Assembly: GCA_039796775.1 (NCBI GenBank)
Contig: JBDKJD010000006.1
Location: forward strand, 1-52,028
Reading direction: 5' to 3'
DNA: 52,028 nt
DNA from: Candidatus Parcubacteria bacterium
GTDB lineage: Bacteria > Patescibacteriota > Minisyncoccia > Phycocordibacterales > UBA5272
Shown here: piece after piece, positions 1 through 15,087 of the stretch
Layout of the letters: every line of letters begins with the position of its first letter
Numbering within the stretch: position 1 is the stretch's first letter
Program-made: the position numbers and the translations under genes
Notes under the pieces: model-generated
Databases searched by the model: none
What the model saw: the letters and a program-made list of their open reading frames with translations, nothing else
What the model was told of the DNA's origin: nothing

Positions 1-1853
1 ATGTATAACTTAATAACCCCACTAATATCAAAAACTTTTTCTGACAGGTTGCCGACTATTTCTCCTAATAGCGTTTCCTCAACTTGTTCAAGGTTAAATA
101 AGAAACTCTCCTCAACTTTTTCTGTTTTATCAAAATACCAACTTAATATATTAAATTGTGTTGCGTATATTCTTTCTATATCATCATCGAACCTATGTTT
201 TATTCCATAGATAATTCTTAAGTTATTTTGTACCGACTGAATAATAGGTAAGCCTAACTGTTTATTTTCTAAACCAGTATCTCTTGCAAGATCAAGTAAG
301 TAGTCACTCCATCTTTCGAGTAACCTAATGTATGCATTTTTTAACTCTTCTTTCTTATCTTTATCATCTAGATCAAAAATTGCATTGATGATATTAACTA
401 ACCATTCATGAAAACCCATATGTAGCTCATTAATAGATAAGTTGATACCACTTGCTAATGACAAAGCTAGAATGCTTTTCTTCAAGTTTTTGAATAAATC
501 CTTCCAAAGAACTTCATCATAAGGATATTTATCCCAACTAATTTTTATTTGATTTAGATAGATATTAACAATTTCTTTAAGTAGAGATTCTTTTTGGATA
601 TCTAATAAACAAGAAGTCGTTAACCTATCAACTGCTTGTGTAATTTGGCTATAATTAAAATGATTATATTCGTTTTTCAGTAAAATATTAGAAACTTTCG
701 AAATAGATTTTATTGATTCCCAGATCCAGTCTCTTTCCTTTGAATCAGCTAATTTATTAATAAAACCAATATAGTAGCTCAGAATCAAACTCAGGATAGG
801 GTTTTCTCCTTGTGCTCCAATATTTTTATCTGCATATTTTATAGTACTTGAATTTATAATGAGATTTTCATAAATATTTAGAAGGTAGTAGATATTTTCC
901 TTTCGCTTTTCTTGAATAATTCTATTGCTAATAGATTCCAGATATTCCAAAACGCTTGTGGTGAAATTTTCATCCTCAAATGTATAGCTCCCCCAGTAAC
1001 TAGATGGGAATCTCATTATATGACCGTTTCTTAAACTTAAGTGATGAATGTAGATATCGTTAATACATCTTAATGTTAAATTAAAAGAATTTATCTCATT
1101 TTTTGAAAGTAATCTTAATCCAATCTCGTAAAGGTGCTTGATATTTTCTAAGATAACAACATTCCATTGAGGGTTAGACTTATACTGAATAGATGTAGAT
1201 AGGTTTTTGGCGTCATCGTCATGTTCAAAAATTTTATTCTGAATATGTGCATGTTTTTTAAGCTCCTTACTAACCTTATTAAGGTGAGTTACTGCATCAT
1301 TTCTAATTTTTGTTAGAGTTGTTTCTGGGTTAACTCTCTGACGTAATTCTTTATACAAAGAATAAATTAAAATAAATGCAATATAAAGAATCGAGATTAA
1401 TATTTCTATCACTAAATCATTTAAAATTATAGGGACCAGGAAGGACAATATCGTAAGAATTACCAGTAACCAAAATATATATTTTTCTTTTTTATCTTGA
1501 ATAAATCTATCTAAGTATCTGGTTGAAAAAAGATCTGCTGTGCTCTGTAGAATAAAAGTTGAAAAAGAAAATATAATAGCAATCGACGCACCAATTATTC
1601 CCGCAACAGAGCTACCTAAACCTATTAACTGATCTTGCTTTAGAGTTACGCCGAGGCAAGGTAATGCTCTGTGAATGATTGAAATGAGAATACTAAAGAT
1701 AAGAGTGTAAAAAAGAAAGGAATCATTTAGTACTGAAAAATATTCTTTTGTTTTGATCCAGCAGATATTAATATACTGTTTTGATTTAAAAAAATACAAA
1801 AAGAACTTCTGTTTTGCTGATAGATTATTAAGTCCTTGTGTCTTGTCTTTCAT
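1..1853 (-). CDS. Membrane protein, >617 aa, 3'-partial: about 4 N-terminal TM helices (DUF2254-like) plus a long helical cytoplasmic region
   Basis: Translated by hand from ATG at 1853 (MKDKTQGLNNLSAKQKFFLY...GIIGASIAIIFSFSTFILQSTADLFSTRYLDRFIQD...). The frame stays open to the window edge, so it is absent from the ORF track. The DUF2254 likeness is by motif resemblance only. Confidence 0.85.
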   Translation of the reverse strand, partial: MKDKTQGLNNLSAKQKFFLYFFKSKQYINICWIKTKEYFSVLNDSFLFYTLIFSILISIIHRALPCLGVTLKQDQLIGLGSSVAGIIGASIAIIFSFSTFILQSTADLFSTRYLDRFIQDKKEKYIFWLLVILTILSFLVPIILNDLVIEILISILYIAFILIYSLYKELRQRVNPETTLTKIRNDAVTHLNKVSKELKKHAHIQNKIFEHDDDAKNLSTSIQYKSNPQWNVVILENIKHLYEIGLRLLSKNEINSFNLTLRCINDIYIHHLSLRNGHIMRFPSSYWGSYTFEDENFTTSVLEYLESISNRIIQEKRKENIYYLLNIYENLIINSSTIKYADKNIGAQGENPILSLILSYYIGFINKLADSKERDWIWESIKSISKVSNILLKNEYNHFNYSQITQAVDRLTTSCLLDIQKESLLKEIVNIYLNQIKISWDKYPYDEVLWKDLFKNLKKSILALSLASGINLSINELHMGFHEWLVNIINAIFDLDDKDKKEELKNAYIRLLERWSDYLLDLARDTGLENKQLGLPIIQSVQNNLRIIYGIKHRFDDDIERIYATQFNILSWYFDKTEKVEESFLFNLEQVEETLLGEIVGNLSEKVFDISGVIKLY

Positions 1854-1934
1854 TACATTTTTATTATATATTTTAGCATATTTTACTTGCTTTTTATATT
1901 TTCTATTGTCACATAAAGATGATAAAATACCTTT

Positions 1935-2198
1935 ATGAGTAAAGACCAAAACCCAGAATTAATAGTTCATGATGATAAGACGGTATGGAGAACGGCCACA
2001 TGTTCTTGTGGTAAGGTTATTTATAAAAAATGCCTAACAAACGACAAGATTGAGCTATTGGTTAGTAAAGGACCAGGTGGATATAAAAAACAGAATATTA
2101 TAAATCATAATAATCCAAGCATGATCACCATCTCTTGTCCTCATTGTAATTTAGAACATATTGTTGGAAATGTTTCTGAAGTGCTTACTTTTGAATAA
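1935..2198 (+). CDS. Small zinc-ribbon protein resembling Mu Com-like regulators
   Basis: CSCGK and ITISCPHC cysteine pairs in 87 aa; lies directly upstream of a DNA-modification gene. Confidence 0.6.
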   Translation: MSKDQNPELIVHDDKTVWRTATCSCGKVIYKKCLTNDKIELLVSKGPGGYKKQNIINHNNPSMITISCPHCNLEHIVGNVSEVLTFE

Positions 2199-2220
2199 TT
2201 TTCTTGTATTTTAATGTGTG

Positions 2221-2229
2221 TGGTATAAT
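2221..2229 (+). promoter_or_regulatory. Extended -10 promoter (TGnTATAAT) for the methyltransferase-terminase operon
   Basis: TGGTATAAT at 2221-2229, about 150 nt before the ATG at 2380. Confidence 0.6.
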
Positions 2230-2246
2230 ATTAGATAACAATTAGA

Positions 2247-2341
2247 AGAGCTTAGATCTGGAACGCCCAGACATTATATTTGTAGAGATACAAATATGTG
2301 TTTGGGTGTTTTTGTTTTTTATACCTAAGCTCTCAAACACA
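2247..2341 (+). ncRNA. Candidate structured 5' leader / attenuator of the methyltransferase-terminase operon
   Basis: Outer stem 2247-2255/2325-2333. 13-bp stem 2262-2274/2298-2310 that needs G-U pairs. Inner perfect 9-bp stem with a GAGA tetraloop. A U-rich tract follows. Confidence 0.6.
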
Positions 2342-2379
2342 CTCTTTTGATTTGTTTTATCAATTAACAAATTAAAATT

Positions 2380-3654
2380 ATGAATAAATTAAATTGGACA
2401 ACAGTCCAAAGAAAAGTAAACGATCTCATTCCGCAAGAGATTAACCCTCGTAAGATTACTGATAAGCAAATGAAGGATCTTACAAAAAGCTTAAAGAAAT
2501 ATAACCTTGTAGAAATTCCTGCAATAGATCTAAACGGTAAAATTCTTGCAGGTCATCAGCGTATAAAAGCACTTCAGTTGCTTGGTAGGGGTGAAGAAGT
2601 AATTGATGTTCGTATTCCAAACAGAAAACTCACTGACGATGAATCAAAACAATACTTGATTGCAAGTAATGCTTTAGGTGGTGATTGGGATACAGAACTC
2701 CTTAAAACTTTTGAACTTGATCTTCTTCTTGATTCAGGATTTGAATCACTAGAACTTGCTAAGTTCTGGGATGAGGATAAAGAAGTTAAGGAGGATAAGT
2801 TTGATATAGAAAAAGAGTTAAAGAAAATCACTCACCCTGTTACAAAACTTGGCGATGTGATTCGTCTTGGTAATCACAAAATAATTTGTGGTGATTCAAC
2901 AAAACAAGAAACTCTTACTAAGTTATTCAGAAACGAAAAAGCAAGCATGATCTACTCTGATCCTGTCTACAACATAAACATCAATTATGACGGCGGTATA
3001 GGAGGTAAGAAAGATTACGGAGGTAATGTAAATGATTCTCGTACTTTTGAAGAGTACAAAATATTTATCAAGGATAGTCTCTCGTCTGCATTATCAGTAA
3101 GCGAAGAAAATACTCATGTATTTTACTGGTGCGATCAAATCTATATAGGATTAATTCAAGAAGTGTACAGATCGCTTGGCATAGCAAACAAGCGTGTTTG
3201 TTTATGGCTTAAGAATAATCAAAATCCTGTGCCAACCGTAGCTTTTAACAAAGTATATGAACCTGCTGTATACGGAGTAAAAGGTAAACCGTATCTTGCT
3301 GATACAGTTACCATTCTTAACGAAGTGCTTAATAAAGAAATGGGGACAGGTAATGAACTTCTTGACCAAGTAAACGAATTCATAGATATCTGGACAGCGA
3401 AAAGACTTGCTTCCAAAGAGTATGAACATGCAACATCTAAGCCAATCACTCTGCATGAAAAAGCAATCAAAAGATGTACTAAACCAAATGACATTATCTT
3501 AGATAGTTTTCTTGGATCAGGTAGCACACTTCTCTGTGCTGAACAGCTTGGTAGACGAGTGTACGGGTGTGAACTTGAACCTCAATTCTGTGATCTTATT
3601 GTTCGTAGATATGAAGTGTTAACAGGTAAGAAAGCAATCTATGAAAAAGAATAA
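2380..3654 (+). CDS. ParB-like N-terminal domain fused to an N4/N6 DNA methyltransferase (phage type)
   Basis: NPRKI...ILAGHQR ParB/Srx motif; DPVY (DPPY-like catalytic motif); HATSKP; LDSFLGSGST SAM-binding motif. Confidence 0.9.
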   Translation: MNKLNWTTVQRKVNDLIPQEINPRKITDKQMKDLTKSLKKYNLVEIPAIDLNGKILAGHQRIKALQLLGRGEEVIDVRIPNRKLTDDESKQYLIASNALGGDWDTELLKTFELDLLLDSGFESLELAKFWDEDKEVKEDKFDIEKELKKITHPVTKLGDVIRLGNHKIICGDSTKQETLTKLFRNEKASMIYSDPVYNININYDGGIGGKKDYGGNVNDSRTFEEYKIFIKDSLSSALSVSEENTHVFYWCDQIYIGLIQEVYRSLGIANKRVCLWLKNNQNPVPTVAFNKVYEPAVYGVKGKPYLADTVTILNEVLNKEMGTGNELLDQVNEFIDIWTAKRLASKEYEHATSKPITLHEKAIKRCTKPNDIILDSFLGSGSTLLCAEQLGRRVYGCELEPQFCDLIVRRYEVLTGKKAIYEKE

Positions 3655-4042
3655 GTTACAGGATCAGTTTTTAGAAGAACTGACTAAAGTGCCGGTTGTA
3701 CAAGTTGCCTGTGAGAGGACTAATTTATCCCGTAACTCTGTATATCGTTGGAGAAAGGAAGATAAAACATTCGAGAAGAAAATGGATGAAGCAATGAAAG
3801 CGGGAGTTGCTTTCGTGAATGATATGAGCGAGTCACAGTTACTTACTCTTATTAAAGAGAAGAGTTATTCTGCTATCTCTTTTTGGCTTCGTCATAGAAA
3901 TGATAACTATAAGGACAAGATCGAAATAACTACAAAGGAAGACAAAGAAGAACTTACCAAGGAACAGAAGAAAGTAGTTAAAAATGCTCTTAAGTTAGCG
4001 TCTATTACAAAGCAAAAATCTATTAAAAAAATTAACAAATAA
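3641..4042 (+). CDS. Putative terminase small subunit (HTH protein)
   Basis: HTH-like ACERTNLSRNSVYRWRKED and AISFWLRHR segments; overlaps the methyltransferase stop and immediately precedes TerL. Confidence 0.7.
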   Translation: MKKNKLQDQFLEELTKVPVVQVACERTNLSRNSVYRWRKEDKTFEKKMDEAMKAGVAFVNDMSESQLLTLIKEKSYSAISFWLRHRNDNYKDKIEITTKEDKEELTKEQKKVVKNALKLASITKQKSIKKINK

Positions 4043-4047
4043 ATTAT

Positions 4048-5505
4048 ATGAAAAATAATCATATCGCTGACATTATAGATACAAAACTTATTAACAAAAT
4101 GATGAAAGATAAAGCAGTTAGAACGGCTATTAACAAAGAAAGTTTCTTGTATTTTTTCCATTTCTATTATGCTCATTATGTGAAATACAAAACCGCAGAT
4201 TTCCAAAAAGAAATTATGCACTATCTTGAAAGAAGCAGTACTGAAAACTTTTATGTTGTTGCTTTTCGTGGATCTGGTAAATCAACCATGGTTACTACCG
4301 CATATCCAATATGGGCAATTCTTGGAAAACAACAAAAGAAGTTTTGTGTTATTTTTTGCCAAACACGGACACAGGCAAAGCAACACATGATGAACATTAA
4401 AACTGAATTAGAGGCTAATTCTCTATTAAAAAAAGATCTTGGTCCTTTCGATGAGGATTCTGATGAGTGGGGATCTTTTTCTATTGTGTTTAGAAAAAAT
4501 AATGCTCGCATTACTGTTGCATCGACAGAACAAAGTATTCGTGGATTGAGGCATAATGAACATCGTCCAGACCTTATTATTTGTGACGATGTGGAAGATA
4601 TACAATCCACGAGAACTAAAGAAAGTAGAGATAAGACTTATAACTGGTTACGGGGAGAGGTTATGCCGTCAGGAGATAAAAGCACAAGGCTTATAATTGT
4701 TGGCAACTTACTGCACGAAGATTCTTTATTGATGAGGATAAAAGAAGATTTGCAAGAATCAAGAGCTAAAGGAGTCTTTAAAGAGTATCCATTACTAGAC
4801 GAAAAAGGATATTGTTTATGGGGTGGTAAATATGAGAAACAATCAGACATAGATTTAGAGATGGAAAAGATATCAAATAACGCTACTTGGGAAAGAGAGT
4901 TTATGTTAAAAATTATCCCAACCGAAGATCAGGTTATTCAGCGTGAATGGATACAGTATTATGATGAAATACCAGACTACTACGATATGCGAGGTTTTAA
5001 ACTTCATCAAGAAATAAGAGTTGGTGTTGATTTAGCAATTTCTCAAAAAGATACCGCAGATTATACGGCTATGGTTTTAGGAAAAATAGTAGTAAGTCCT
5101 AGGGGTTCAAAGATGTATATCTTACCAAGAGTGGTCAATAAGAGAATATCTTTTCCTCAAACAGTTTTAGAGTGCTTAGCATTAAACGAATCGTATAAGA
5201 ATATTACTTTTGTTATAGAGAATGTTGCTTATCAACAAGCACTACCTGAACAATTAATAAAGGAAGGTGTGGCAAAAATTAGATCACCAAAACCTGTTGG
5301 AGACAAAAGAACTAGACTTGCACTTACTTCTCATCTAATAAAGTCAGGACAGGTGATTTTCCCTAGGTATGGGTGTGAGCAACTAATCAATCAGATAGTT
5401 AATTTTGGAGTTGAAAAACACGATGACCTAGCAGATGCATTTTCAACACTTGTGATTGATCTTATAGAGAAAAAAGTAAGTTACGCTCAAATTTTATATG
5501 TTTAA
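4048..5505 (+). CDS. Phage terminase large subunit (ATPase plus RNase H-like nuclease)
   Basis: Walker A AFRGSGKST; Walker B LIICDDVED; nuclease motifs GVDLA and HDDLADA. Confidence 0.92.
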   Translation: MKNNHIADIIDTKLINKMMKDKAVRTAINKESFLYFFHFYYAHYVKYKTADFQKEIMHYLERSSTENFYVVAFRGSGKSTMVTTAYPIWAILGKQQKKFCVIFCQTRTQAKQHMMNIKTELEANSLLKKDLGPFDEDSDEWGSFSIVFRKNNARITVASTEQSIRGLRHNEHRPDLIICDDVEDIQSTRTKESRDKTYNWLRGEVMPSGDKSTRLIIVGNLLHEDSLLMRIKEDLQESRAKGVFKEYPLLDEKGYCLWGGKYEKQSDIDLEMEKISNNATWEREFMLKIIPTEDQVIQREWIQYYDEIPDYYDMRGFKLHQEIRVGVDLAISQKDTADYTAMVLGKIVVSPRGSKMYILPRVVNKRISFPQTVLECLALNESYKNITFVIENVAYQQALPEQLIKEGVAKIRSPKPVGDKRTRLALTSHLIKSGQVIFPRYGCEQLINQIVNFGVEKHDDLADAFSTLVIDLIEKKVSYAQILYV

Positions 5506-5506
5506 C

Positions 5507-6439
5507 TTACTTGCAAGCATCGGCTAAAACTCTTTTAGGGTATATGGCAAGTAGTTCTTCTAAACTGTTAAAAGTTCTTAAATTAGTTTTAGAAAGTTCT
5601 TGCCATGCAGGACATGTATCAGGATAGTATTTCGTAGCATTTGATGCAGATGAAGTATGGTACTTTGTTTCAGTGCTCACTGTTACAGATACTGTTCCTG
5701 TTGTATTTCCGTTACAAGTATTTGGTGACCAAAGACCAAGTTGATTTTGTTGTGCCAACCTTTGCGCTTCTTTAAATTCTGCTTGATATTTATAAGCAGA
5801 GTTATAAGTGTACTCATGGGCATAACCTTGTTCGATCATGTACTTGTTATAAAAAGTACCATTCTCGGTATAGATATAGGTAAGTAATCTATTGTACTTG
5901 TCACGCTTTCCTTGTGTAGGGTCTTCTTCGACTCTTACTTTCTTTCCTATAAGTAATTCTTTTCCTTTGTTTGATGCTTCTTTACCAAAACACTGTACAG
6001 GTTTACGAGGGTCTACTGTTTCTGGGGTATCTAAACCAATGAGACGAAGTGTCTCTGTTGTTCCGTTAATATTTACTTTAACAGTGTCGCCGTCTACTAC
6101 TTCTACAACTGAATAGTAAGTGTAGCTAGGTTGCTCTTTAGGGGTGACGACAGGCTTTTGATCTGTAACTTTCTGACTGATAACTTTATTTTCAGTTACT
6201 ACTACTTTCTGCTCACTCGTCGTAGCAACTATAGTTTTTGTTTCTTGTTTTTGTACTACTTGTACCTGTTCTTCTTTTGGTAATGTCATTCCGAAAAGAA
6301 TAAAGGAGGACACCATAACTCCTCCTAGTATTCCAAGAACTGATTTTCTTGTATGTAATTTTATTAAATTTGGTTTGATCATGCCGACGATAATGGTAGG
6401 TATTGAAAAAAGAAAAAGTAGAAGAAAAAATGTATTCAT
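5507..6439 (-). CDS. Membrane-anchored thermonuclease (SNase family) with a small Cys-containing C-terminal domain
   Basis: VVDGDT, LRLIGLDTPE, DKYNRLL and GLW SNase motifs; two N-terminal hydrophobic helices. Start moved to ATG 6439 because the longer ORF runs through a structured RNA. Confidence 0.9.
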   Translation of the reverse strand: MNTFFLLLFLFSIPTIIVGMIKPNLIKLHTRKSVLGILGGVMVSSFILFGMTLPKEEQVQVVQKQETKTIVATTSEQKVVVTENKVISQKVTDQKPVVTPKEQPSYTYYSVVEVVDGDTVKVNINGTTETLRLIGLDTPETVDPRKPVQCFGKEASNKGKELLIGKKVRVEEDPTQGKRDKYNRLLTYIYTENGTFYNKYMIEQGYAHEYTYNSAYKYQAEFKEAQRLAQQNQLGLWSPNTCNGNTTGTVSVTVSTETKYHTSSASNATKYYPDTCPAWQELSKTNLRTFNSLEELLAIYPKRVLADACK

Positions 6440-6618
6440 AAAAGTGTGATAGGTCTTTATAAATTGTGGTAGCAAAAAGCCCACCACATGGGTGAGGACT
6501 TTCGTCCTCCATACCCGTTTCCAGGTACGGCCTATCACAGCAAACCCCATATGATGGGTTCTTTACTGTGATAGGACTTTTCACCATGCCAGCTGATAAG
6601 TCAACTGGTTTAGGCTAC
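6440..6618 (-). ncRNA. Candidate multi-stem structured RNA leader upstream of the thermonuclease
   Basis: Two GAAA-tetraloop hairpins (loops 6500-6503 and 6518-6521), a perfect 10-bp stem 6531-6540/6566-6575, a hairpin at 6589-6608 with a G-U pair, and a tetraloop-receptor-like CCUAAA/CAUGG. Confidence 0.65.
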
Positions 6619-6664
6619 TTCAAATTGTTTTTAATACTCTTGTATTAATTACTTAATTATATCG

Positions 6665-6728
6665 CAAAAAGGTCCTTTTGCTAAGGCTTTGTTGCCAACA
6701 TAAAAAGGCTTAGCAAAACTATCTTTTT
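6665..6728. repeat. Imperfect inverted repeat just upstream of the serine recombinase; candidate att/operator site
   Basis: TTTTGCTAAG (6676-6685) / CTTAGCAAAA (6709-6718) with an internal TGTTG-C-CAACA dyad. Confidence 0.5.
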
Positions 6729-6744
6729 CTGTCATTAATATAAT

Positions 6745-8064
6745 ATGGATAATATAGCAATCGGAAAAATAAATACAGAAGTTGTCTTTTCTGAAGAGAA
6801 AATTAAATATGTGCTGTATGCAAGAAAAAGCACAGAACAAGACGAGCTTCAAGCTCTCTCGATAGAATCACAGGTTAAAGAAATGCTACAAATTGCAGAT
6901 AAAGAGCATCTTCATATAGTTGATATTAAAAGAGAGGCACACAGTGCAAAAGCATCAGGACAAAGACCTGTATTTCAAGAAATATTACAAGAGTTAAGAG
7001 TCGGTAAATATACAGGAATACTAACTTGGGCACCAGATAGATTAAGTAGAAATGCAGGCGACCTAGGGTCGCTTGTTGATTTAATGGATCAAAAGAAATT
7101 AATACATATCCAAACGTATACCCAAAAGTTTACTAACGATCCGTCGCAAAAGTTTCTTCTTATGATTTTATGCTCTCAGGCAAAATTAGAGAATGATAAT
7201 AAGTCACTTAATGTTAAACGAGGTTTAAGAGCGAGGGTTGAAATGGGATTATGGCCATGTCGTCCACCAACAGGATATCTCTCAACAAAAAGAACTGATA
7301 AAAAATGTGTTGCTGTTCCAGATCCTGAACGAGCAGAAATAATAAAACAAGTATTTCAAAAAATTGGTAATGATGGTTGGACAGGAATGAAGACATTTAA
7401 ATGGTTGACAGAAGAGATTAAATTCAAAACTGAATTTAATAAACCACTAAGCATGGGTAACTTTTACAGACTTATTGATAACCATTTCTATTACGGCATA
7501 TTTGAGTTTCCAAAAGATAGTGGCCAGTGGTACAAAGGAATACATGAACCTATTATTTCTAAAGAGTTATTTGATTTAACACAGAAAAATATTAAAGATC
7601 ATCTTCTCGAACCAAAATATGCACAAAAAGAATTCGCTTTTACTAGAATGTTTATTTGTGGTGAATGTGGATCAGGCATAACAGCAGATGAAAAGTTTAA
7701 GAAACAGAAGAATGGAAATACTCATAGGTATGTATATTACAAATGCACAAGAACAAAAAATAGAAACTGTAATTCAAAATATTTCAACGAAGAAGATCTT
7801 ATTAATCAACTTCAATCCCTGGCTGATAATCTAGATTTAAATAAAATATCGATAAAGGAGAAAATTACCTTTGAGGTTAAAAGATTTAAAAAGTTTCACA
7901 GTCGACTTCTTGGTAAAACATCACCTATTACTGTGGGTGAAATTGATTTAAGAGATTATGTTAAGTTTATTTTAGCGGAGGGAGAAATTGAAGAAAAAAG
8001 AGAAATATTAAGTTGTTTTAAGAATAAAATTTTAGTAAAAGAGAAGGAATTAAGGCTAGCATAA
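6745..8064 (+). CDS. Large serine recombinase (integrase type)
   Basis: YARKST catalytic Ser motif; DRLSRN; recombinase domain ending HEPIIS; zinc ribbon CGECG...YYKC. Confidence 0.95.
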   Translation: MDNIAIGKINTEVVFSEEKIKYVLYARKSTEQDELQALSIESQVKEMLQIADKEHLHIVDIKREAHSAKASGQRPVFQEILQELRVGKYTGILTWAPDRLSRNAGDLGSLVDLMDQKKLIHIQTYTQKFTNDPSQKFLLMILCSQAKLENDNKSLNVKRGLRARVEMGLWPCRPPTGYLSTKRTDKKCVAVPDPERAEIIKQVFQKIGNDGWTGMKTFKWLTEEIKFKTEFNKPLSMGNFYRLIDNHFYYGIFEFPKDSGQWYKGIHEPIISKELFDLTQKNIKDHLLEPKYAQKEFAFTRMFICGECGSGITADEKFKKQKNGNTHRYVYYKCTRTKNRNCNSKYFNEEDLINQLQSLADNLDLNKISIKEKITFEVKRFKKFHSRLLGKTSPITVGEIDLRDYVKFILAEGEIEEKREILSCFKNKILVKEKELRLA

Positions 8065-8107
8065 AGTCCCTATAAAATAAGACTGAAAAATGTTAAAATA
8101 CCCATTG

Positions 8108-10786
8108 ATGAGTCTTAATGAAGTACAAGACAAGCTAGAGAATCTCTGTAAAAATATTTCACCAGAAGTGTTTATTTTTAATTTGCTGGAGATTTATGAA
8201 TTTCCAAAGACTACAATACTTAAATTAAAAAAAGAAACTGATCATTCTGTTGTTAAAATAAAAAACAAGCTCTATTTTAAAGTTACAACAACCGAAGAAG
8301 ATGAGCATGTTGCGGTAGATGATTTATCTAAAAACAAAGATGTTTTAAAACTTAATCCAAGATTTATCGTGGTGACAGATTACGATAACTTTGTTGCAAT
8401 TGATACGAAGAAAACTATCGATGATCCTTCTAGAACTTTAGATATAAAAATAACAGATCTTTATAAGCGTTACGATTTCTTTGCTCCGTGGCTTGGTGTT
8501 GAAAGTTATCAAGTTGATAAGGAGACAGTGGCTGATATAAAAGCGGCCAACAAGATGGCAAAGCTTTATGATCAGATACTTTCAGATAACCCAGACTTCT
8601 ACACCACTAATTCATCAGATTTAAATTTATTACTCTCACGTTTACTGTTTTGTTTTTTTGCTGAAGATACAGGAATTTTTGAGAAAAACTTGTTTACCAA
8701 TTCCGTACTTTCAAATTCAGATATAAGTGGAAGTAATCTTTCCGTATACATAGAGAGAGTTTTTGATGTTTTTAATATTGATTATAAAGATAGAACAGAA
8801 AAACATAGTGATATAAACAACTTCCCTTATGTAAACGGAGGTCTTTTTAAGGATCGCATTTCTATTCCAAAATTTACTAAAAAAACCAGAGACTTACTTG
8901 AGGATTGCGGTAATTTAGATTGGTCTGAAATTAATCCAGACATTTTTGGGTCAATGATTCAAGCCGTTGTGCACCCAAATCAAAGAGAGAACCTTGGAAT
9001 GCATTACACGTCAGTTCCTAACATAATGAAACTGATAAGGCCTCTTTTCCTAGATGACCTTTATGAAGATTATTTTAACAGTGTTGGAAATAGGAAGAAA
9101 TTAGAAGAGTTAAGAAAGAGAATTTCTAATATAAAAGTTTTTGATCCCGCTTGTGGATCAGGCAACTTTCTGATCATATCTTATAAGGAACTTTGTAAAC
9201 TGGAAGCTTTAATTTTGAAGCAAATTTTTGGTGATAATGATCGTTTGGATTTAGATATTACATTTTCTGCCATAACCCTAAATAATTTTTATGGTATAGA
9301 AATAGATGATTTTGCTCACGATGTTGCAAAACTTTCTTTATACCTTGCTCAACATCAGGTTAATGTGATGTTTGAAAAAGAATTCGGCAAATTAAAGCCA
9401 ATTCTTCCACTTAAAGAAAGTGGAAATATTAAATGTGCCAACTCTGCAAGATCAAACTGGGAAGAGTTTTGTCAAAATCAGGGGGAGGTTTATCTTGTTA
9501 GTAATCCTCCTTATTTAGGGGCTAGAGTTCAAGATATTACTCATAAAGAAGATATGAGTTTAGTTTTAAATAAGTTTGAATCATATAACAACCTAGATTA
9601 CATATCAGTATGGTTCGTAAAAGGTGCGTATTACATAAGTAATAATAAAAATGCAAAGCTTGCTTTTGTGTCTACAAATTCTGTTTGCCAAGGTGAACAG
9701 GTAGCACTTTTGTGGCCTAAAATCTTTGATCTTGGAGTAGAAATATTTTTTGCATATCAGTCATTTAAATGGCAAAATAATGCTAAACATAATGCTGGTG
9801 TAACTGTAATTATTGTTGGTTTGTGTAATGTTGGAATAGTAAAAAACAAAAAAATATTTATTGGTAATATTGAAACGAAAGCGAAAAATATTAATCCGTA
9901 TCTTTCTAATTCTGGTAATATTTATATTAAATCAAGAACATCACCCTTGTCAGATTTTCCAGAAATGAGCTTTGGAAGCATGCCAAATGACGGCGGCAAC
10001 CTCATGTTAGAAAATAACGAATATTCTGATTTAATAAAAAATGTACCTGGAGTAAAAAAGTTTGTAAGAAAAATTTTAGGAGCTGAAGAGTTCATTAGCG
10101 GGACAGAAAAATATTGTATATGGGTGGAAGATAAAGATTTAGAAGAAGCAAATAAGATTCCTTTTTTAAGAGATCGTTTTGATATGGTGTCTAAATTTAG
10201 AGATAAAAGCAGTAGAAAAGCAACACAGAAATTAGCTTTTTATTCACATAGGTTTGCAGAAAATAGACACAAAAACAAAAGTTGTATAGTTATACCTGGC
10301 ATCTCTTCAGAAAAAAGAACTTACATACCTATAGGATTTATTTCTAAGGAATATATAATCAATAACAGATGCTACATAATACCTACTGACGAAATTTATT
10401 TATTTGGTGTTTTAACTTCTTTGATGCACATGATTTGGGTTCGTGCTGTTGCTGGAAAATTAGAAACAAGATTAAGTTACTCTAAGGATATTGTATATAA
10501 CAATTTTCCATTTCCGAGTATTACACAAAAACAAAAAGAATTAATTACGAATCAGGTATACAACATTCTAGATGAAAGAGAGAAATACCCAGGAAAAACC
10601 TTCGCGGAACTTTATGATTCTGAAAAAATGCCACACGGCTTAAAACAAGCGCATGAATTTTTAGATGAGGTTATAGATAAAATTTATAGAGTAAAGCCAT
10701 TCGATAACGACGAAGAGAGGTTAGATCACCTCTTTAAACTCTACGAAGAAATGGTAGAAAAGGAGAAGCAGGAGAAGAAAAAATAG
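8108..10786 (+). CDS. yeeA: MmeI-family (type IIL-like) m6A DNA methyltransferase with target-recognition domain, YeeA/DnmA-like
   Basis: GMHYTS, FDPACGSGNF and SNPPY motifs; RLLFCFFAEDTGIF; C-terminal YNNFPFP...LYD. Alternative start at 8090. Confidence 0.88.
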   Translation: MSLNEVQDKLENLCKNISPEVFIFNLLEIYEFPKTTILKLKKETDHSVVKIKNKLYFKVTTTEEDEHVAVDDLSKNKDVLKLNPRFIVVTDYDNFVAIDTKKTIDDPSRTLDIKITDLYKRYDFFAPWLGVESYQVDKETVADIKAANKMAKLYDQILSDNPDFYTTNSSDLNLLLSRLLFCFFAEDTGIFEKNLFTNSVLSNSDISGSNLSVYIERVFDVFNIDYKDRTEKHSDINNFPYVNGGLFKDRISIPKFTKKTRDLLEDCGNLDWSEINPDIFGSMIQAVVHPNQRENLGMHYTSVPNIMKLIRPLFLDDLYEDYFNSVGNRKKLEELRKRISNIKVFDPACGSGNFLIISYKELCKLEALILKQIFGDNDRLDLDITFSAITLNNFYGIEIDDFAHDVAKLSLYLAQHQVNVMFEKEFGKLKPILPLKESGNIKCANSARSNWEEFCQNQGEVYLVSNPPYLGARVQDITHKEDMSLVLNKFESYNNLDYISVWFVKGAYYISNNKNAKLAFVSTNSVCQGEQVALLWPKIFDLGVEIFFAYQSFKWQNNAKHNAGVTVIIVGLCNVGIVKNKKIFIGNIETKAKNINPYLSNSGNIYIKSRTSPLSDFPEMSFGSMPNDGGNLMLENNEYSDLIKNVPGVKKFVRKILGAEEFISGTEKYCIWVEDKDLEEANKIPFLRDRFDMVSKFRDKSSRKATQKLAFYSHRFAENRHKNKSCIVIPGISSEKRTYIPIGFISKEYIINNRCYIIPTDEIYLFGVLTSLMHMIWVRAVAGKLETRLSYSKDIVYNNFPFPSITQKQKELITNQVYNILDEREKYPGKTFAELYDSEKMPHGLKQAHEFLDEVIDKIYRVKPFDNDEERLDHLFKLYEEMVEKEKQEKKK

Positions 10787-10809
10787 ATTAGTAATATAAA
10801 TAAAAAACC

Positions 10810-12762
10810 ATGCAACCAAACAAAACAATTCAAGTCGCAGAAGCTATATATGCACAGACAGGTCAAAGTACTAAACTTAATGAGTTTGGTATGCGTGAAA
10901 TGCAAGCAAAAGCATACGAAAAGAGAAGTTCAGAGTACCTTCTTATAAAAGCTCCACCGGCATCAGGAAAGTCTCGCGCACTTATGTTTATTGCTTTAGA
11001 TAAGCTACATAACCAAGGAATAAAAAAGGTTATTGTTGCTGTGCCAGAAAAATCTATCGGCGGATCTTTCTCTGAAACAAAACTTACTGAATATGGTTTT
11101 TTTGCTGATTGGGATGTAAATGATGATTACAATTTGTGCACCCCTGGAGGAGATGAAGGGAAGGTTAGTTTATTTGAAAAGTTTATGGATAATGATGAGA
11201 GAATTCTCATTTGTACTCACGCAACACTTCGCTATGCTGTTGCTAACATTCCAGACGAAAAGTTCAACAATACACTGCTCGCAATTGATGAATTTCATCA
11301 TGTGTCGGCTGATAAGGATACCAGTGTATTAGGTCAAACATTGCATGGAATAATGACAAATTCTAATGCGCACATTGTTGCAATGACAGGTTCATATTTT
11401 AGAGGTGATGGAGTTGCTGTCTTGTTGCCAGAAGACGAAGCTAAGTTTAGTAAAGTTACTTATAATTACTATCAGCAACTTAATGGATATACCTACTTAA
11501 AGTCTCTAGGTATCGGATATCATTTTTATCAGGGCAAATACACATCTGCAATAGCTGAAGTTTTGGATACTGATAAAAAAACTATTTTACATATACCAAA
11601 TGTGAATGCGGGTGAATCAACTAAAGATAAGTTAAATGAAGTAGATTTAATTATAGATACTATTGGAGAGTTTGATCATCAAGATAAAGAAACTGGTGTA
11701 ATTTATGTTAAACGAGACAAAGATGGCAAGATGATCAAAATAGCAAATCTTGTTGACGATTCGGTGGATAGAACACCCATACAAACATATTTAAGAAACA
11801 TTAAAAATGTTGATGATATGGATCTTATTATTGCACTAGGTATGGCAAAAGAAGGTTTTGACTGGCCTTTCTGTGAACATGCTTTAACAGTTGGTTACAG
11901 AAGCTCTCTTACTGAGATCATTCAAATTATTGGAAGATGTACCCGTGACAGTTCTAATAAGGTTCATGCACAGTTTACTAATCTTATTGCTCAACCAGAC
12001 GCAAAAGATATTGAAGTTAAAATATCAGTAAATAATATGCTAAAAGCGATTACTTGTTCACTTCTTATGGAGCAAGTAATGGCACCTCATTTTAACTTTA
12101 AAGTGAAGAGATCTTCGGAAGAAAAAGGGAACCCTGGAGATATTTTTATTAAAGGCTTTAAACAACCATCTACTCAAAAGGTTAAAGATATTCTAGAGTC
12201 AGATATAACTGATATAAAAGCTAAGATCTTTCAAGATGATCAAGTGGTTAAAGCGTTGCCAGGCAATATTGATCCTGAAGTTATTAATAAAGTTTTAATT
12301 CCAAAAATAATAAAGGAAAAATATCCAGATCTTACCGATGAAGAGGTTGAAGAAGTCAGGCAACACATCGTTGCAGACTCTGTACTCAAAACAAGTAAAA
12401 TTAAAACCGAGGGTGATAAAAAGTTTATTATTATGGCTGGAGGGTTTGTTAATATTGAAGATTTAAATATCGATCTAATCGATAAAATTAACCCTTTCCA
12501 AGATGCTTACGAGATTCTTTCAAAGTCTGTTACTTCTAATGTATTAAGAGTTATTCAGGAGACCGTGTTGGCTAGTAGAATTGAAATGTCTGAAGAGGAG
12601 GCAAAACTTTTATGGGCTGAAAAAAAGATTCAGGAATTTACTAAAAACAATAACGGTAACCATCCAGATATTAAGTCAGATGATCCTATTGAAAGAAGAT
12701 ACGCTGAAGCTGTTGTGATACTAAAGCGAATGAAGGCACAAGGTAAAGAAATTTATGGATAA
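10810..12762 (+). CDS. yeeB: SF2 DEAD/DEAH-type helicase/ATPase, YeeB-like
   Basis: APPASGKS Walker A; DEFHH; MTGS; EGFD; QIIGRCTR; second gene of the operon. Confidence 0.85.
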   Translation: MQPNKTIQVAEAIYAQTGQSTKLNEFGMREMQAKAYEKRSSEYLLIKAPPASGKSRALMFIALDKLHNQGIKKVIVAVPEKSIGGSFSETKLTEYGFFADWDVNDDYNLCTPGGDEGKVSLFEKFMDNDERILICTHATLRYAVANIPDEKFNNTLLAIDEFHHVSADKDTSVLGQTLHGIMTNSNAHIVAMTGSYFRGDGVAVLLPEDEAKFSKVTYNYYQQLNGYTYLKSLGIGYHFYQGKYTSAIAEVLDTDKKTILHIPNVNAGESTKDKLNEVDLIIDTIGEFDHQDKETGVIYVKRDKDGKMIKIANLVDDSVDRTPIQTYLRNIKNVDDMDLIIALGMAKEGFDWPFCEHALTVGYRSSLTEIIQIIGRCTRDSSNKVHAQFTNLIAQPDAKDIEVKISVNNMLKAITCSLLMEQVMAPHFNFKVKRSSEEKGNPGDIFIKGFKQPSTQKVKDILESDITDIKAKIFQDDQVVKALPGNIDPEVINKVLIPKIIKEKYPDLTDEEVEEVRQHIVADSVLKTSKIKTEGDKKFIIMAGGFVNIEDLNIDLIDKINPFQDAYEILSKSVTSNVLRVIQETVLASRIEMSEEEAKLLWAEKKIQEFTKNNNGNHPDIKSDDPIERRYAEAVVILKRMKAQGKEIYG

Positions 12763-13873
12763 AGATTTTTACAATCTACTTCAAGATGATGAGTTTGGTT
12801 TATTAGTAGAAAAACCAAAAAATAAACCTATTACTGAAAATGATAGGATTGTAGAATCTTTTCTAGAAATCGTAGATTTTTACAAAGAACATAATAGACT
12901 TCCTGAATTAAACGATATTCATGAAAGAAAGTTATCTGTAAGGTTGAAAATGTTTCAAGACAACAAGGAATCCTATTCTTTTTTACAAAATTATGACGAA
13001 TTTAGCCTTCTAGAGAATAATCTAGAAGAAACTAAGGTAGATGATGATTTTGGTCTGCTTGATTTATCTGATGATGACTATTCTATTTCAAAAGTTATAA
13101 ATGTTCCTGAGATTTCTAAAGATAGATCAGATCCTGATTTAATAGCAAAGAGAATAAAGTGTGATGATTTTGATAAATTTGAGCCATTATTTATTGATTG
13201 TCAGAATAAATTAAAAAGTGGAGCGTATTCTTTATCTAGTTTTGTAGAATCTGAAATGAAAGAAGGAGATTTCTTTGTTCAAAATGGCATGCTTATTTAT
13301 ATAGATAAAATTTACGATCCATATAGAGGTAATAGTAACAAAATAAATAAAAGGACTCGCTGTATTTATGAAAATGGACTCGAGTCAAATGCACTATTAA
13401 GGTCACTTGGTAAGAGTTTGTCTGCTAATGGTTTTGCTATTAAAAAAGCAGGTCAAATAAATTCAGATGATATCGATTCTGGTTACATTTATATTCTAAA
13501 ATCTTTAAGTTCTGATCCAAGAATTCAAAATACGAAAGATCTATACAAGATTGGTTTTTCTACTACAGAAGTGGAAGAGAGAATAAAAAATGCAGAGAAG
13601 GACCCAACGTACCTAATGGCGCCTGTTCATCTTGTAGAAAAGATAAAATGTTTTAATCTTGATCCTCATAGATTTGAAAGATTGGTTCATAGATTTTTTG
13701 GAGAAGTTTGTCTCGATCTTCAGATATCAGACAATAATGGAATGTTATATACGCCAAAAGAGTGGTTTTCTGTACCTATTACAGTTATTGAACAAGCTAT
13801 AGATTTAATAATATCTGGTGACATTATTAATTATGAGTACGATAAGTTTACAAGGACAATAATAAAGAAATAA
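12755..13873 (+). CDS. yeeC: GIY-YIG-fold nuclease (T5orf172/MUG113 domain), YeeC-like
   Basis: GYIYILKS...LYKIGFST...ERI...EWF; overlaps the helicase stop codon. Confidence 0.85.
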   Translation: MDKDFYNLLQDDEFGLLVEKPKNKPITENDRIVESFLEIVDFYKEHNRLPELNDIHERKLSVRLKMFQDNKESYSFLQNYDEFSLLENNLEETKVDDDFGLLDLSDDDYSISKVINVPEISKDRSDPDLIAKRIKCDDFDKFEPLFIDCQNKLKSGAYSLSSFVESEMKEGDFFVQNGMLIYIDKIYDPYRGNSNKINKRTRCIYENGLESNALLRSLGKSLSANGFAIKKAGQINSDDIDSGYIYILKSLSSDPRIQNTKDLYKIGFSTTEVEERIKNAEKDPTYLMAPVHLVEKIKCFNLDPHRFERLVHRFFGEVCLDLQISDNNGMLYTPKEWFSVPITVIEQAIDLIISGDIINYEYDKFTRTIIKK

Positions 13874-13885
13874 GCATATTTACCT

Positions 13886-13928
13886 AAATACTTAAAAACT
13901 GCCTTTCTGGGGCAGTTTTTAAGTATTT
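13886..13928. terminator. Bidirectional intrinsic terminator between the yeeABC-like operon and tRNA-Glu
   Basis: Perfect 18-bp inverted repeat AAATACTTAAAAACTGCC / GGCAGTTTTTAAGTATTT. Confidence 0.8.
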
Positions 13929-13960
13929 GCTGGTATCCTTCTCGTGATACCTGCTGAAGG

Positions 13961-14032
13961 TGACCTCACGGGGAATCGAACCCCGCTTCCAGGCATGAGA
14001 AGCCTGTGTCCTAACCGATAGACGATGAGGCC
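13961..14032 (-). tRNA. tRNA-Glu (anticodon CTC)
   Basis: Cloverleaf GGCCTCA...TGAGGTC-A; anticodon arm CAGGC-TTCTCAT-GCCTG; T-loop TTCGATT; followed by CCT rather than CCA. Confidence 0.95.
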
Positions 14033-14547: not shown

Positions 14548-15087
14548 ATGATAAAAAATTTCTACAAGGTTACTCAGATTCTCGCGTTTGTGCCTTTCAT
14601 GGCTATGCCGAGCGTTTCAGTTTCCTCTAATATTGGCTCACTCGATACTGCCCCTATAGCAAAGGAAGTTGTTTCGATTGAAGATATCCGTGAAGCACGT
14701 GCAGAAGCTATTGATTCTTATTTTAAGGATAGATCAATGCCGCTGTATGGTACGGGAATGACATTCGTCTTAGTTGCTGAAAAGTATGGTCTCGACTGGA
14801 GACTTATGCCGTCAATCGGTGTACGTGAGTCATCGGGCGGCAAGAACGATTGTGGATATAATCCATTCGGATGGGGATCGTGTAAGTTACATAACTTCCA
14901 TAGTTATGAAGAAGCGATCGAATCCCTTGGACGCAACCTAGGAGGTGCGAACAAGAATACCGCTCGTTACTATGCCGGCAAGACTACCTATGAGAAGCTC
15001 TACTACTATAACGGAACCGTAGTCCCTAGCTATCCAAATGAAGTTATCGCTATCATGAATAAAATAGAAAGAGAATATCTCGATTAA
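14548..15087 (+). CDS. Secreted lysozyme-fold / glucosaminidase-like peptidoglycan hydrolase
   Basis: Signal peptide; YGLDWRLMPSIGVRESSGG catalytic Glu motif; NPFGWG; YYN. Confidence 0.7.
   Translation: MIKNFYKVTQILAFVPFMAMPSVSVSSNIGSLDTAPIAKEVVSIEDIREARAEAIDSYFKDRSMPLYGTGMTFVLVAEKYGLDWRLMPSIGVRESSGGKNDCGYNPFGWGSCKLHNFHSYEEAIESLGRNLGGANKNTARYYAGKTTYEKLYYYNGTVVPSYPNEVIAIMNKIEREYLD

Follow-up and report, generated by a model that had tools for sequence, protein, structure and literature searches.

Head-less islands of Patescibacteria that pair a phage terminase with a large serine recombinase

Introduction

Phage-inducible chromosomal islands of the capsid-forming kind (cfPICIs) are chromosomal islands that encode their own small and large terminase subunits (TerS and TerL) and need a helper phage to supply what else the virion requires; terL is named as a distinguishing core gene of theirs (PMC10085698), and they are the only described satellites that we found credited with a terL. 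Phage-inducible chromosomal islands (PICIs) including Staphylococcus aureus pathogenicity islands (SaPIs), PICI-like tycheposons and marine virion-encapsidated integrative mobile elements (VEIMEs) are described as small integrative islands that often sit at tRNA genes, carry defence or other adaptive cargo and use a packaging gene to hijack helper capsids (PMC9618062; 10.1101/2020.12.28.424599). Downstream chromosomal genes including defence systems can also be carried by lateral transduction, described as in-situ packaging from a pac site in or near terS (PMC8575950; PMC12829572). Here we describe an element in a 52,028-bp stretch of DNA (the window) that is the entire contig C6 (JBDKJD010000006.1) of a Candidatus Parcubacteria genome (770,741 bp, 13 contigs, 95.9% complete). 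It carries genes for a DNA methyltransferase (MTase), a TerS-like protein, TerL and a large serine recombinase (LSR), with no head genes. An earlier note made from the window alone had argued that a full terminase without a head module fits neither the PICI nor the cfPICI pattern, and the element indeed lacks defining features of both.

Like a cfPICI, the element brings its own TerS and TerL on a chromosomal island and would presumably depend on a helper. However, cfPICIs are described as having a capsid, a portal, a protease and head-tail connectors (PMC10085698), none of which was found here, and the integrase-regulator-primase module given for them in the same text likewise has no counterpart that we could find, the integrase of the element being an LSR. 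PICIs, tycheposons and VEIMEs bring terS, or else a capsid gene, and use the TerL of their helper, and most have replication genes and tyrosine integrases; here, in contrast, a TerS-TerL pair is accompanied by an MTase and there is no conserved replication module. The layout also resembles that of lateral transduction in that cargo lies downstream of terS-terL, though the capsids come from the same phage in that process, whereas a helper would be needed here. Judged by its genes, the element therefore appears to be no PICI (defined by an integrase, a regulator, a primase or replicase and terS without terL), because terL is present and no conserved primase or replicase occurs in 61 loci. It would be no cfPICI for want of its own capsid, portal and connectors, and no prophage, as we found no head, tail or lysis genes or remnants of them beside the terminase in the window or in the flank of a second copy on contig C3 of the same genome.

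Outside the satellites, elements of the SCCmec (staphylococcal cassette chromosome mec, with ccr recombinases) and Tn5397/Tn4451 type combine an LSR with variable cargo, site-specific insertion and tandem arrays and have no transfer apparatus of their own. Our element shares the LSR with variable cargo and the tandem arrangement, presumably also the site-specific insertion and the lack of a transfer apparatus, and we know of no terminase or phage methyltransferase in elements of that type. The mycobacterial phiRv1 and phiRv2 are incomplete phages of about 10 kb with an LSR and few packaging genes including a terminase, but they have kept a capsid and a prohead protease, neither of which is present here. 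We found no account in the literature of a capsid-less serine-recombinase island with TerS and TerL, although supplementary tables could still list such loci.

Core genes of the island

At the level of sequence, our comparisons show an LSR-borne island family that appears to have gained a phage packaging block once and to keep it functional and mobile without head genes. In the window, this core comprises:

2380-3654, plus strand: ParB-like domain and N6/N4 DNA methyltransferase (PF01555 5e-30; phrog_498 6e-84)
3641-4042, plus strand: TerS-like helix-turn-helix (HTH) protein, 133 aa (phrog_4044 1.7e-9; Sf6_terminase 9e-4, below cut-off)
4048-5505, plus strand: TerL with ATPase and RNase H-like nuclease (phrog_38 2.9e-79; Terminase_6C 7.8e-8)
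6745-8064, plus strand: large serine recombinase (Resolvase 9e-22; Recombinase 8e-12; Zn_ribbon_recom 2e-8; phrog_95 integrase 3e-62)

A newly made list of open reading frames (ORFs) bears out the earlier description of three intact and tightly coupled genes: the MTase and TerS ORFs share 14 nt, a gap of 5 nt follows between TerS and TerL, and a single base separates TerL from the convergent nuclease gene at which the operon had been said to end.

The phrog_38 match of TerL spans residues 17-476, while Terminase_6N (1.7e-4) falls just below its cut-off, and a TerL profile searched against the Protein Data Bank (PDB) finds T7 gp19 (4bij) at 1.5e-6 as well as 8dgc. Ten residues are invariant in 19 sequences, so the ATPase and nuclease motifs are preserved as the earlier note had claimed; we take G75, S76 and K78 to be the Walker A motif, D180, D181 and E183 to be Walker B, and D328, D459, D460 and D463 to be the nuclease aspartates. 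With a profile match over both domains, the ATPase motifs and the acidic nuclease triad, the protein is predicted to be a bona fide TerL. The LSR likewise qualifies as a predicted large serine recombinase, its catalytic, recombinase and zinc-ribbon domains all scoring above the Pfam cut-offs, and R27, S29, D98, R99, R102 and C305/C308/C334/C342 are invariant in 15 homologues. The ParB-like part of the MTase (residues 7-148) matches phrog_620 at 1.9e-23.

The small protein between MTase and TerL has the form of an HTH followed by a long helix; its AlphaFold model has a pLDDT of 77.6, and its phrog_4044 match is limited to residues 7-54. VIA-align places Sf6 gp1 first (Z 8.0-8.2 over 81-82 residues, a value within the range common for helical models) and other TerS proteins at Z 4.7-5.4. 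Foldseek returned nothing at E<=1e-3 with this model, although the top rows are TerS proteins, and a search of PDB sequences with a TerS profile yielded no hit under E 0.19. A homologue lies directly upstream of TerL in 42 of 61 loci; for the MTase, an upstream homologue is present in 61/62 loci and in 109/128 of a wider set.

Search for head genes

Anywhere in the source genome, the portal families phrog_2662 and phrog_12 and the major capsid family phrog_10 have no match at E<=1, and when the genome was queried by tblastn with the portal, protease and capsid proteins encoded on the nearest phage-type contigs, the best E was 0.8, which is noise. The earlier statement that the element has no portal or capsid genes thus stands for the window and extends, by profile and tblastn searches, to a genome of 95.9% completeness. 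TerL is present here without a portal or procapsid from its own genome, which makes the element unusual.

Beyond the source genome, we searched 43 of the 48 other TerL-bearing genomes with phrog_2662, omitting five with fragmentary or weak TerL matches. Only one of them, G016, has such a portal, and it lies on another contig than the element. It belongs to a phage-type portal-protease-capsid block at a contig end (L133, G016:C12:30000-40237) in a genome that also has two head-less elements, and this block is a candidate for a possible helper phage.

Distribution and shared gene order

Of 401 genomes sampled across the phylum, 49 encode a TerL homologue (E<=1e-10, mostly 40-64% identical), including 45 of the 339 high-quality ones and representing 44 of 319 genera, with patchy occupancy within the genus of the source genome (11/41 genomes). 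Among 50,697 GenBank phage records, the nearest TerL is 27.6% identical, and of 1.84 billion searched, 468 cluster representatives match TerL at E<=1e-30. We examined up to 10 kb on each side of 39 loci from genomes, 25 from IMG/VR and 80 from a species-representative collection; 138 loci were kept, with three duplicates and five phage-type IMG/VR contigs removed and the phage fragment of G016 set aside. Record titles in the species-representative collection name Parcubacteria/Paceibacterota, Saccharibacteria, Woese-, Nomura-, Komeili-, Gracili-, Peri-, Moranii- and Kuenenbacteria, along with a few oddly labelled metagenome-assembled genomes.

With the phage-type contigs removed, this search for the MTase-TerS-TerL-recombinase arrangement, which the earlier note had proposed, left nothing but head-less loci, and no BLAST match to a phage-type portal, protease or capsid was found in any of them. 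They share the order of a ParB-MTase (sometimes with a second MTase of ~255 aa), TerS, TerL, 0-13 variable genes and an LSR on the same strand. The LSR is visible downstream of TerL on the same strand in 106/138 loci and is its immediate neighbour in 46 of these 106. When the proteins of 61 loci were clustered, only four families proved to be widely shared, namely the MTase (60), TerL (60), the LSR (52) and TerS (42); an S24 repressor occurs in 10/61 and all other families are variable. Among 20 genome loci, a single TGA interrupts TerL.

A few loci depart from this picture. Tandem TerL pairs occur in L041, L058, L231 and G229:C1:69914-72827 (46-50% identical to the query), and the representative library contains TerL-containing proteins of 680-830 aa that may be fusions. 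Twenty of the head-less loci (within L053-L073) were retrieved from the IMG/VR collection of viral contigs, where they are presumably filed for their terminase and likely inflate provirus counts for Patescibacteria.

Phage origin and selection

In the IMG/VR contigs L074-L077, a TerL 34-43% identical to that of the window is immediately followed by a portal-MuF fusion (phrog_2662, 1e-88 to 1e-126). The protease phrog_80 and the major capsid phrog_10 score in L076, phrog_10 does so in L077 as well, and weaker BLAST relatives of phage-type head proteins are found in L074, L075 and L077. A further contig, L072, has a ParB-MTase, TerL and one short ORF before a portal fragment. These gene orders indicate that the MTase-TerS-TerL block belongs to the normal make-up of a phage late operon. 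In a maximum-likelihood tree (quick search, LG+G4, 72 rows, seven distant TerLs as outgroup, L076 omitted as partial), the 61 TerLs of the element form one clade (SH-aLRT 99) with L072 as its sister (support 91) and the other phage-type TerLs basal. TerL clades mix host families, which together with the patchy occupancy of the genus speaks for horizontal spread. The head-less state thus appears to have a single, ancient and phage-derived origin.

Ratios of nonsynonymous to synonymous substitution (dN/dS, Nei-Gojobori) are 0.012-0.109 for TerL where dS is defined and 0.04-0.05 for TerS, and they range over 0.03-0.12 in the MTase and 0.02-0.18 in the LSR, with synonymous sites saturated in most pairs. 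The TerL pair L137-L140 has a dS of 0.47 and a dN/dS of 0.052, and the TerS of the window has a dN/dS of 0.04 against its paralogue on C3 (85% identity). Homologous loci are therefore neither mostly complete prophages nor, where head-less, under relaxed selection, the combination that would have spoken against the earlier note. The same data bear on the view that the locus is a decaying prophage remnant whose head and tail genes were deleted. This would account for phage-derived genes beside an integrase, but it is very improbable given 138 independent head-less loci with the same core, a dN/dS of at most 0.11 (at saturated synonymous sites), invariant catalytic residues and a head-less origin that seems to be single and ancient.

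Pairwise identities of TerL correlate with those of the LSR (Spearman 0.67), TerS (0.65) and the MTase (0.44), and modules are also exchanged: of 215 pairs with TerL at >=75% identity, 121 fall to 55% or below in the MTase or the LSR. Of the same 401 genomes, 69 have an LSR of this family (E<=1e-80), comprising 46 of the 49 TerL-bearing ones and 23 without TerL. The source genome itself has a third LSR copy (G000:C4:60245-61570, 58-63% identical) in a patch of low G+C at 57,500-65,000 of contig C4 that has no MTase, TerS or TerL and is a terminase-less version of the island.

The island and its second copy

G+C is 29-35% over positions 1 to ~13,940 of the window and ~39-41% in the remainder, and the island ends on the right at a tRNA-Glu (13959-14032). 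Homology with same-genus genomes begins at ~13,893-13,938 (DNA matches in 41 such genomes), so that this boundary lies within ~65 bp of the tRNA gene. On the left, the island edge in the window is the contig end, because the window is all of contig C6. Besides the core, the island contains:

3-1949, minus strand: membrane protein, 649 aa, truncated at the contig end (DUF2254 matched only weakly, 6.6e-5, under the cut-off)
1935-2198, plus strand: 87-aa ORF upstream of the MTase (no Pfam or PHROG family match)
5507-6550, minus strand: staphylococcal-nuclease-like protein (PF00565 4e-26)
6494-6616, minus strand: LOOT RNA (RF03000; 95.9 bits, full length)
8090-10786, plus strand: MmeI-type (type IIG) restriction-modification enzyme, cargo (five MmeI Pfam domains, up to 6.9e-99; PADLOC REase_MTase_IIG 3.6e-291)
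10810-12762, plus strand: DEAD/ResIII helicase, cargo (DEAD 7e-8; ResIII 2.6e-7)
12755-13873, plus strand: T5orf172/MUG113 (GIY-YIG-like) domain protein, cargo (PF13455 1e-14; PF10544 1.5e-13)
13959-14032, minus strand: tRNA-Glu(CTC), the right boundary (ARAGORN and Rfam)

A TerL paralogue with 62-63% identity to that of the window marks the second copy, on contig C3. The copies are 48% identical in the MTase, 85% in TerS, 62% in TerL and 64% in the LSR, and they differ in cargo. On the minus strand, the C3 copy runs from a divergent LexA-like S24 protein through a 200-aa ORF, the ParB-MTase, TerS, TerL, the LSR, type III Mod and Res, a reverse transcriptase and a 411-aa ORF to the contig start. 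In three genomes of the same genus (G439, G417 and G433), the tRNA-Glu(CTC) and the orthologue of the window gene at 14548-15087 lie near the orthologues of C3:27397-28680, C3:29341-31896 and the genes following them, and by this synteny C6 and C3 are joined at their starts. The gap between the tRNA-Glu and the orthologue of C3:27397 is ~3.5 kb in G439, ~1 kb in G417 and ~0.9 kb in G433 (which has a 4.7-kb insert on the opposite side of the tRNA gene), compared with at least 41 kb in the source genome. On this reconstruction, there is one island of at least 41 kb with two elements arranged in tandem and in the same orientation at the tRNA-Glu. The 649-aa membrane protein, for which no PHROG or PADLOC match was found, is placed between the two and may be cargo.

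The rest of the island (C3:13,850-27,396) holds a pair of genes of a cyclic-oligonucleotide-based antiphage signalling system (CBASS) and host-like genes for peptidoglycan-binding proteins, DM13, a disulfide oxidoreductase, DedA/VTT and MsrAB; no head genes were found in this interval. The CBASS pair (a cyclase at 2e-118 and a 2TM/Cap15 effector at 1e-73; L260 1008-2617, equal to G000:C3:14008-15617) lies beside the LexA-like repressor of the C3 element. The DNA to the left of the window, where the earlier note had allowed for portal or capsid genes just out of view, is thus occupied by a second head-less copy, CBASS and host-like genes. This also bears on the idea that a complete prophage was cut by the contig end or mis-assembled, with its head genes on another contig. 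The window does begin inside the island, yet this explanation is the least credible of those we considered: the genome-wide search met neither portal nor capsid, synteny joins C6 to C3, whose annotated flank is head-less, and loci within closed or large contigs show both flanks. Both the assembly artefact and the decaying prophage are contradicted by the data.

The tRNA-Glu site is an integration hotspot, and across the family 68 of 73 tRNA genes (from 45 of the 138 loci) lie on the LSR side. Different insertions occupy the site in other relatives, among them a five-gene block that is tandemly duplicated (L256, G435:C4:40000-59999). In a search for attachment (att) repeats, local alignment near the window ends did not exceed shuffled controls. 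A ~45-nt hairpin-plus-T-run repeat flanks the C3 element (C3:216-258 and C3:16905-16947) and the LSR patch on C4 (C4:58141-58197), but it is present between genes in many copies across the genus and so may be a terminator or REP-like repeat rather than an att site.

Defence cargo

On the two local copies, PADLOC identifies restriction-modification systems of types IIG and III together with CBASS and a reverse transcriptase of the defence type. The MmeI-type enzyme of the window is predicted to be a type IIG system, all five MmeI domains lying on one polypeptide. Together with the helicase and the T5orf172 protein it may form a single three-gene defence system: the block recurs in L069 and L162 (43-76% identity) in different positions and orientations, and the helicase-T5orf172 pair is found in L176, whose locus ends after the helicase. 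In a random 119 of 378 cargo proteins, the commonest PADLOC families were mad2 (8), methyltransferase models for types II and III (4-5 each) and the type I model (4), a tally of the commonest families only that gives no share of defence genes; methyltransferases of restriction systems are the most frequent group. Cargo placement varies among relatives, where the blocks may flank the LSR to the left or right or precede the MTase, and the reverse transcriptase and type III genes of L054 and C3 exemplify such a shifted block. In the probable source run, contig depth is 16.7 over positions 21-7056, 12.8 over 8034-13991 and 15.4 in the host part, and contigs break within the recombinase gene. The difference in depth between core and cargo possibly reflects population heterogeneity in cargo and proves nothing.

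This setting raises the question of whether the MTase-TerS-TerL block is itself a defence. A resident terminase might cleave or wrongly package the DNA of related infecting phages, or it might take up their portals, with the MTase marking self, while the LSR would only move an island that spreads by other means. The block is always found amid defence genes (restriction-modification of types IIG and III, reverse transcriptase, CBASS), no replication or excision functions were found among the 61 loci, and known satellites are reported to interfere with helper packaging. LSR islands without the block exist as well, so that it behaves like one more cargo module. Unlike the shuffled cargo, however, the block is fixed in position and orientation upstream of the LSR in 106/138 loci and co-varies with the recombinase, and in known satellites interference does not preclude self-transfer. 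We consider it unlikely that interference is the function of the block.

Repressor, nuclease and LOOT RNA

Upstream of the C3 copy lies an S24 (LexA/CI-like) gene whose close DNA matches (>85%) are confined to 4/40 other genus members, for which reason we rejected it as the host lexA; its relatives in the remaining genus genomes are proteins of only ~30-34% identity. Copies in the elements of other lineages are 65-75% identical and keep the same divergent position. This repressor travels with the element and is no host gene. In L153, the closest relative of the window element (TerL 89%), a LexA-like gene stands where the window has the membrane protein, and a 94-aa homologue (31% identity) of the 87-aa ORF occupies the same place as in the window.

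The nuclease of the window has a hydrophobic segment after an internal Met, so it is probably membrane-anchored or secreted, with its true start at the Met near 6439. Its gene lies downstream of the LOOT RNA, which at 95.9 bits (E 9.6e-18) is well above the Rfam gathering score of 46.4, matches the whole model (positions 1-121 of 121) and is flanked by a promoter-like site (6684-6656) and a hairpin with a T-run (6496-6480). RF03000 was found in 18 of 44 TerL-bearing genomes and in none of 14 control genomes, and our own LOOT model (13 copies) is present in 17/68 and 36/80 sources. Directly 3' of LOOT there is a gene on the same strand in 50/53 cases, with the LSR as the 5'-side neighbour in 28/53. 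BLAST links 33 of 47 downstream genes, whose Pfam matches include OB-fold tRNA_anti-like domains (7), zinc ribbons (5), SNase (4), Ltp lipoprotein (3) and DUF4352 (2); judging from these sequences, they appear to encode surface or secreted proteins. Ltp is a superinfection-exclusion protein, and most simply LOOT would be the 5' leader of a gene of the lysogenic-conversion type that belongs to the element. Roles as a recombination site or as a guide RNA for the LSR were dropped in view of the same-strand gene that directly follows in 50/53 cases. A second LOOT in the source genome (G000:C1:22561-22679, minus strand) lies 3.2 kb from a different, 509-aa serine recombinase, and inspected copies have an extra conserved hairpin after the Rfam model. 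As far as we know, the RNA was previously known from metagenomes only. Rfam classes it simply as sRNA, and the main text of Weinberg 2017 does not discuss it.

A secreted or anchored nuclease or other surface protein, presumably under LOOT control, is often encoded beside the LSR, which might fit a terminase that works without any capsid, processing or exporting element DNA, for example by unit-length cuts for release and for uptake by way of these epibionts' competence or pilus machinery. In the same genomes, head genes and helpers are also almost never found. Yet the block has been inherited intact from a phage late operon, we know of no precedent for a terminase without a capsid, and a serine integrase requires a double-stranded attP whereas transformation brings in single strands. 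Capsid-free transfer is on balance a quite improbable explanation.

Discussion

The earlier note had interpreted the locus as an unusual packaging element. Its structural part has been borne out, for the element is recurrent, selected and head-less and no truncated or decaying prophage. Its functional part has not, since a satellite, a cargo mobiliser and an interference factor are not told apart by the data. Our confidence is accordingly high that the element exists and moderate as to its mechanism. That it is a new terminase-only phage satellite or a self-transducing defence island has, in our estimate, about an even chance of being right.

For such a satellite or self-transducing island, we propose the following course of events. 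An ancestral island would have captured a ParB-MTase/TerS/TerL late-operon block from a tailed phage lineage. Upon derepression, the operon would be expressed; the divergent LexA/CI-like S24 repressor in part of the loci suggests SOS or a helper as the trigger. The MTase would then mark element DNA before packaging, and retention of such a pre-packaging enzyme would make sense if the DNA does leave the cell. TerS would recognise a pac site in the element, and TerS-TerL would cut the DNA and pump it, along with the adjacent defence cargo, into procapsids of a helper from a related lineage with a portal of family phrog_2662. In a new cell, the LSR would integrate the element, often beside a tRNA gene. 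As a variant, the downstream cargo could be packaged in situ in the manner of lateral transduction. Going further, and somewhat more doubtfully, the islands could be a fifth and phylum-wide satellite family with a complete terminase and no part of a capsid that docks on helper portals and is the main mover of restriction-modification, reverse transcriptases and CBASS between Patescibacteria, LOOT being its dedicated leader for surface-exclusion and nuclease genes.

Several observations weigh against packaging into helper capsids. A candidate helper was seen in just one of 43 genomes, and we know of no portal-less satellite with a TerL that would show that a foreign TerL can use the portal of a helper. 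The small subunit can be called TerS-like on weak sequence matches and a moderate fold match of a helical protein. No conserved replication module, excisionase or recombination directionality factor (RDF) was found among the 61 loci. The circular junctions that the earlier note had suggested looking for did not turn up at the contig level: in the contigs of runs X1, X2, X4 and X6, of which X1 is the only holder of the element and probably its source, no joint excises or circularises it (the joints listed there are relatives at 90-95% identity or have short sides), and terminal overlaps are absent from all 30 whole contigs that carry the core. No particle-associated DNA of the element was found either. 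Finally, recombinase islands can persist without a terminase, as the 23 of 69 LSR genomes without TerL and the copy on C4 demonstrate.

Patescibacteria make up a large share of bacterial diversity, with tiny genomes and few recognised prophages, and gene exchange among them is largely unknown. Head-less loci of the kind described here are a source of false provirus calls, given that 20 of them came from IMG/VR viral contigs, and the LOOT RNA gains a genomic home and a likely role. If our proposal is true, it would extend the known satellite strategies of bringing only terS, remodelling the capsid or bringing an own capsid by one in which the satellite brings only its own motor. An island family that is present in about one genome in eight, is loaded with defence genes and keeps a packaging enzyme under selection thus offers a concrete and testable route of gene transfer in this phylum.

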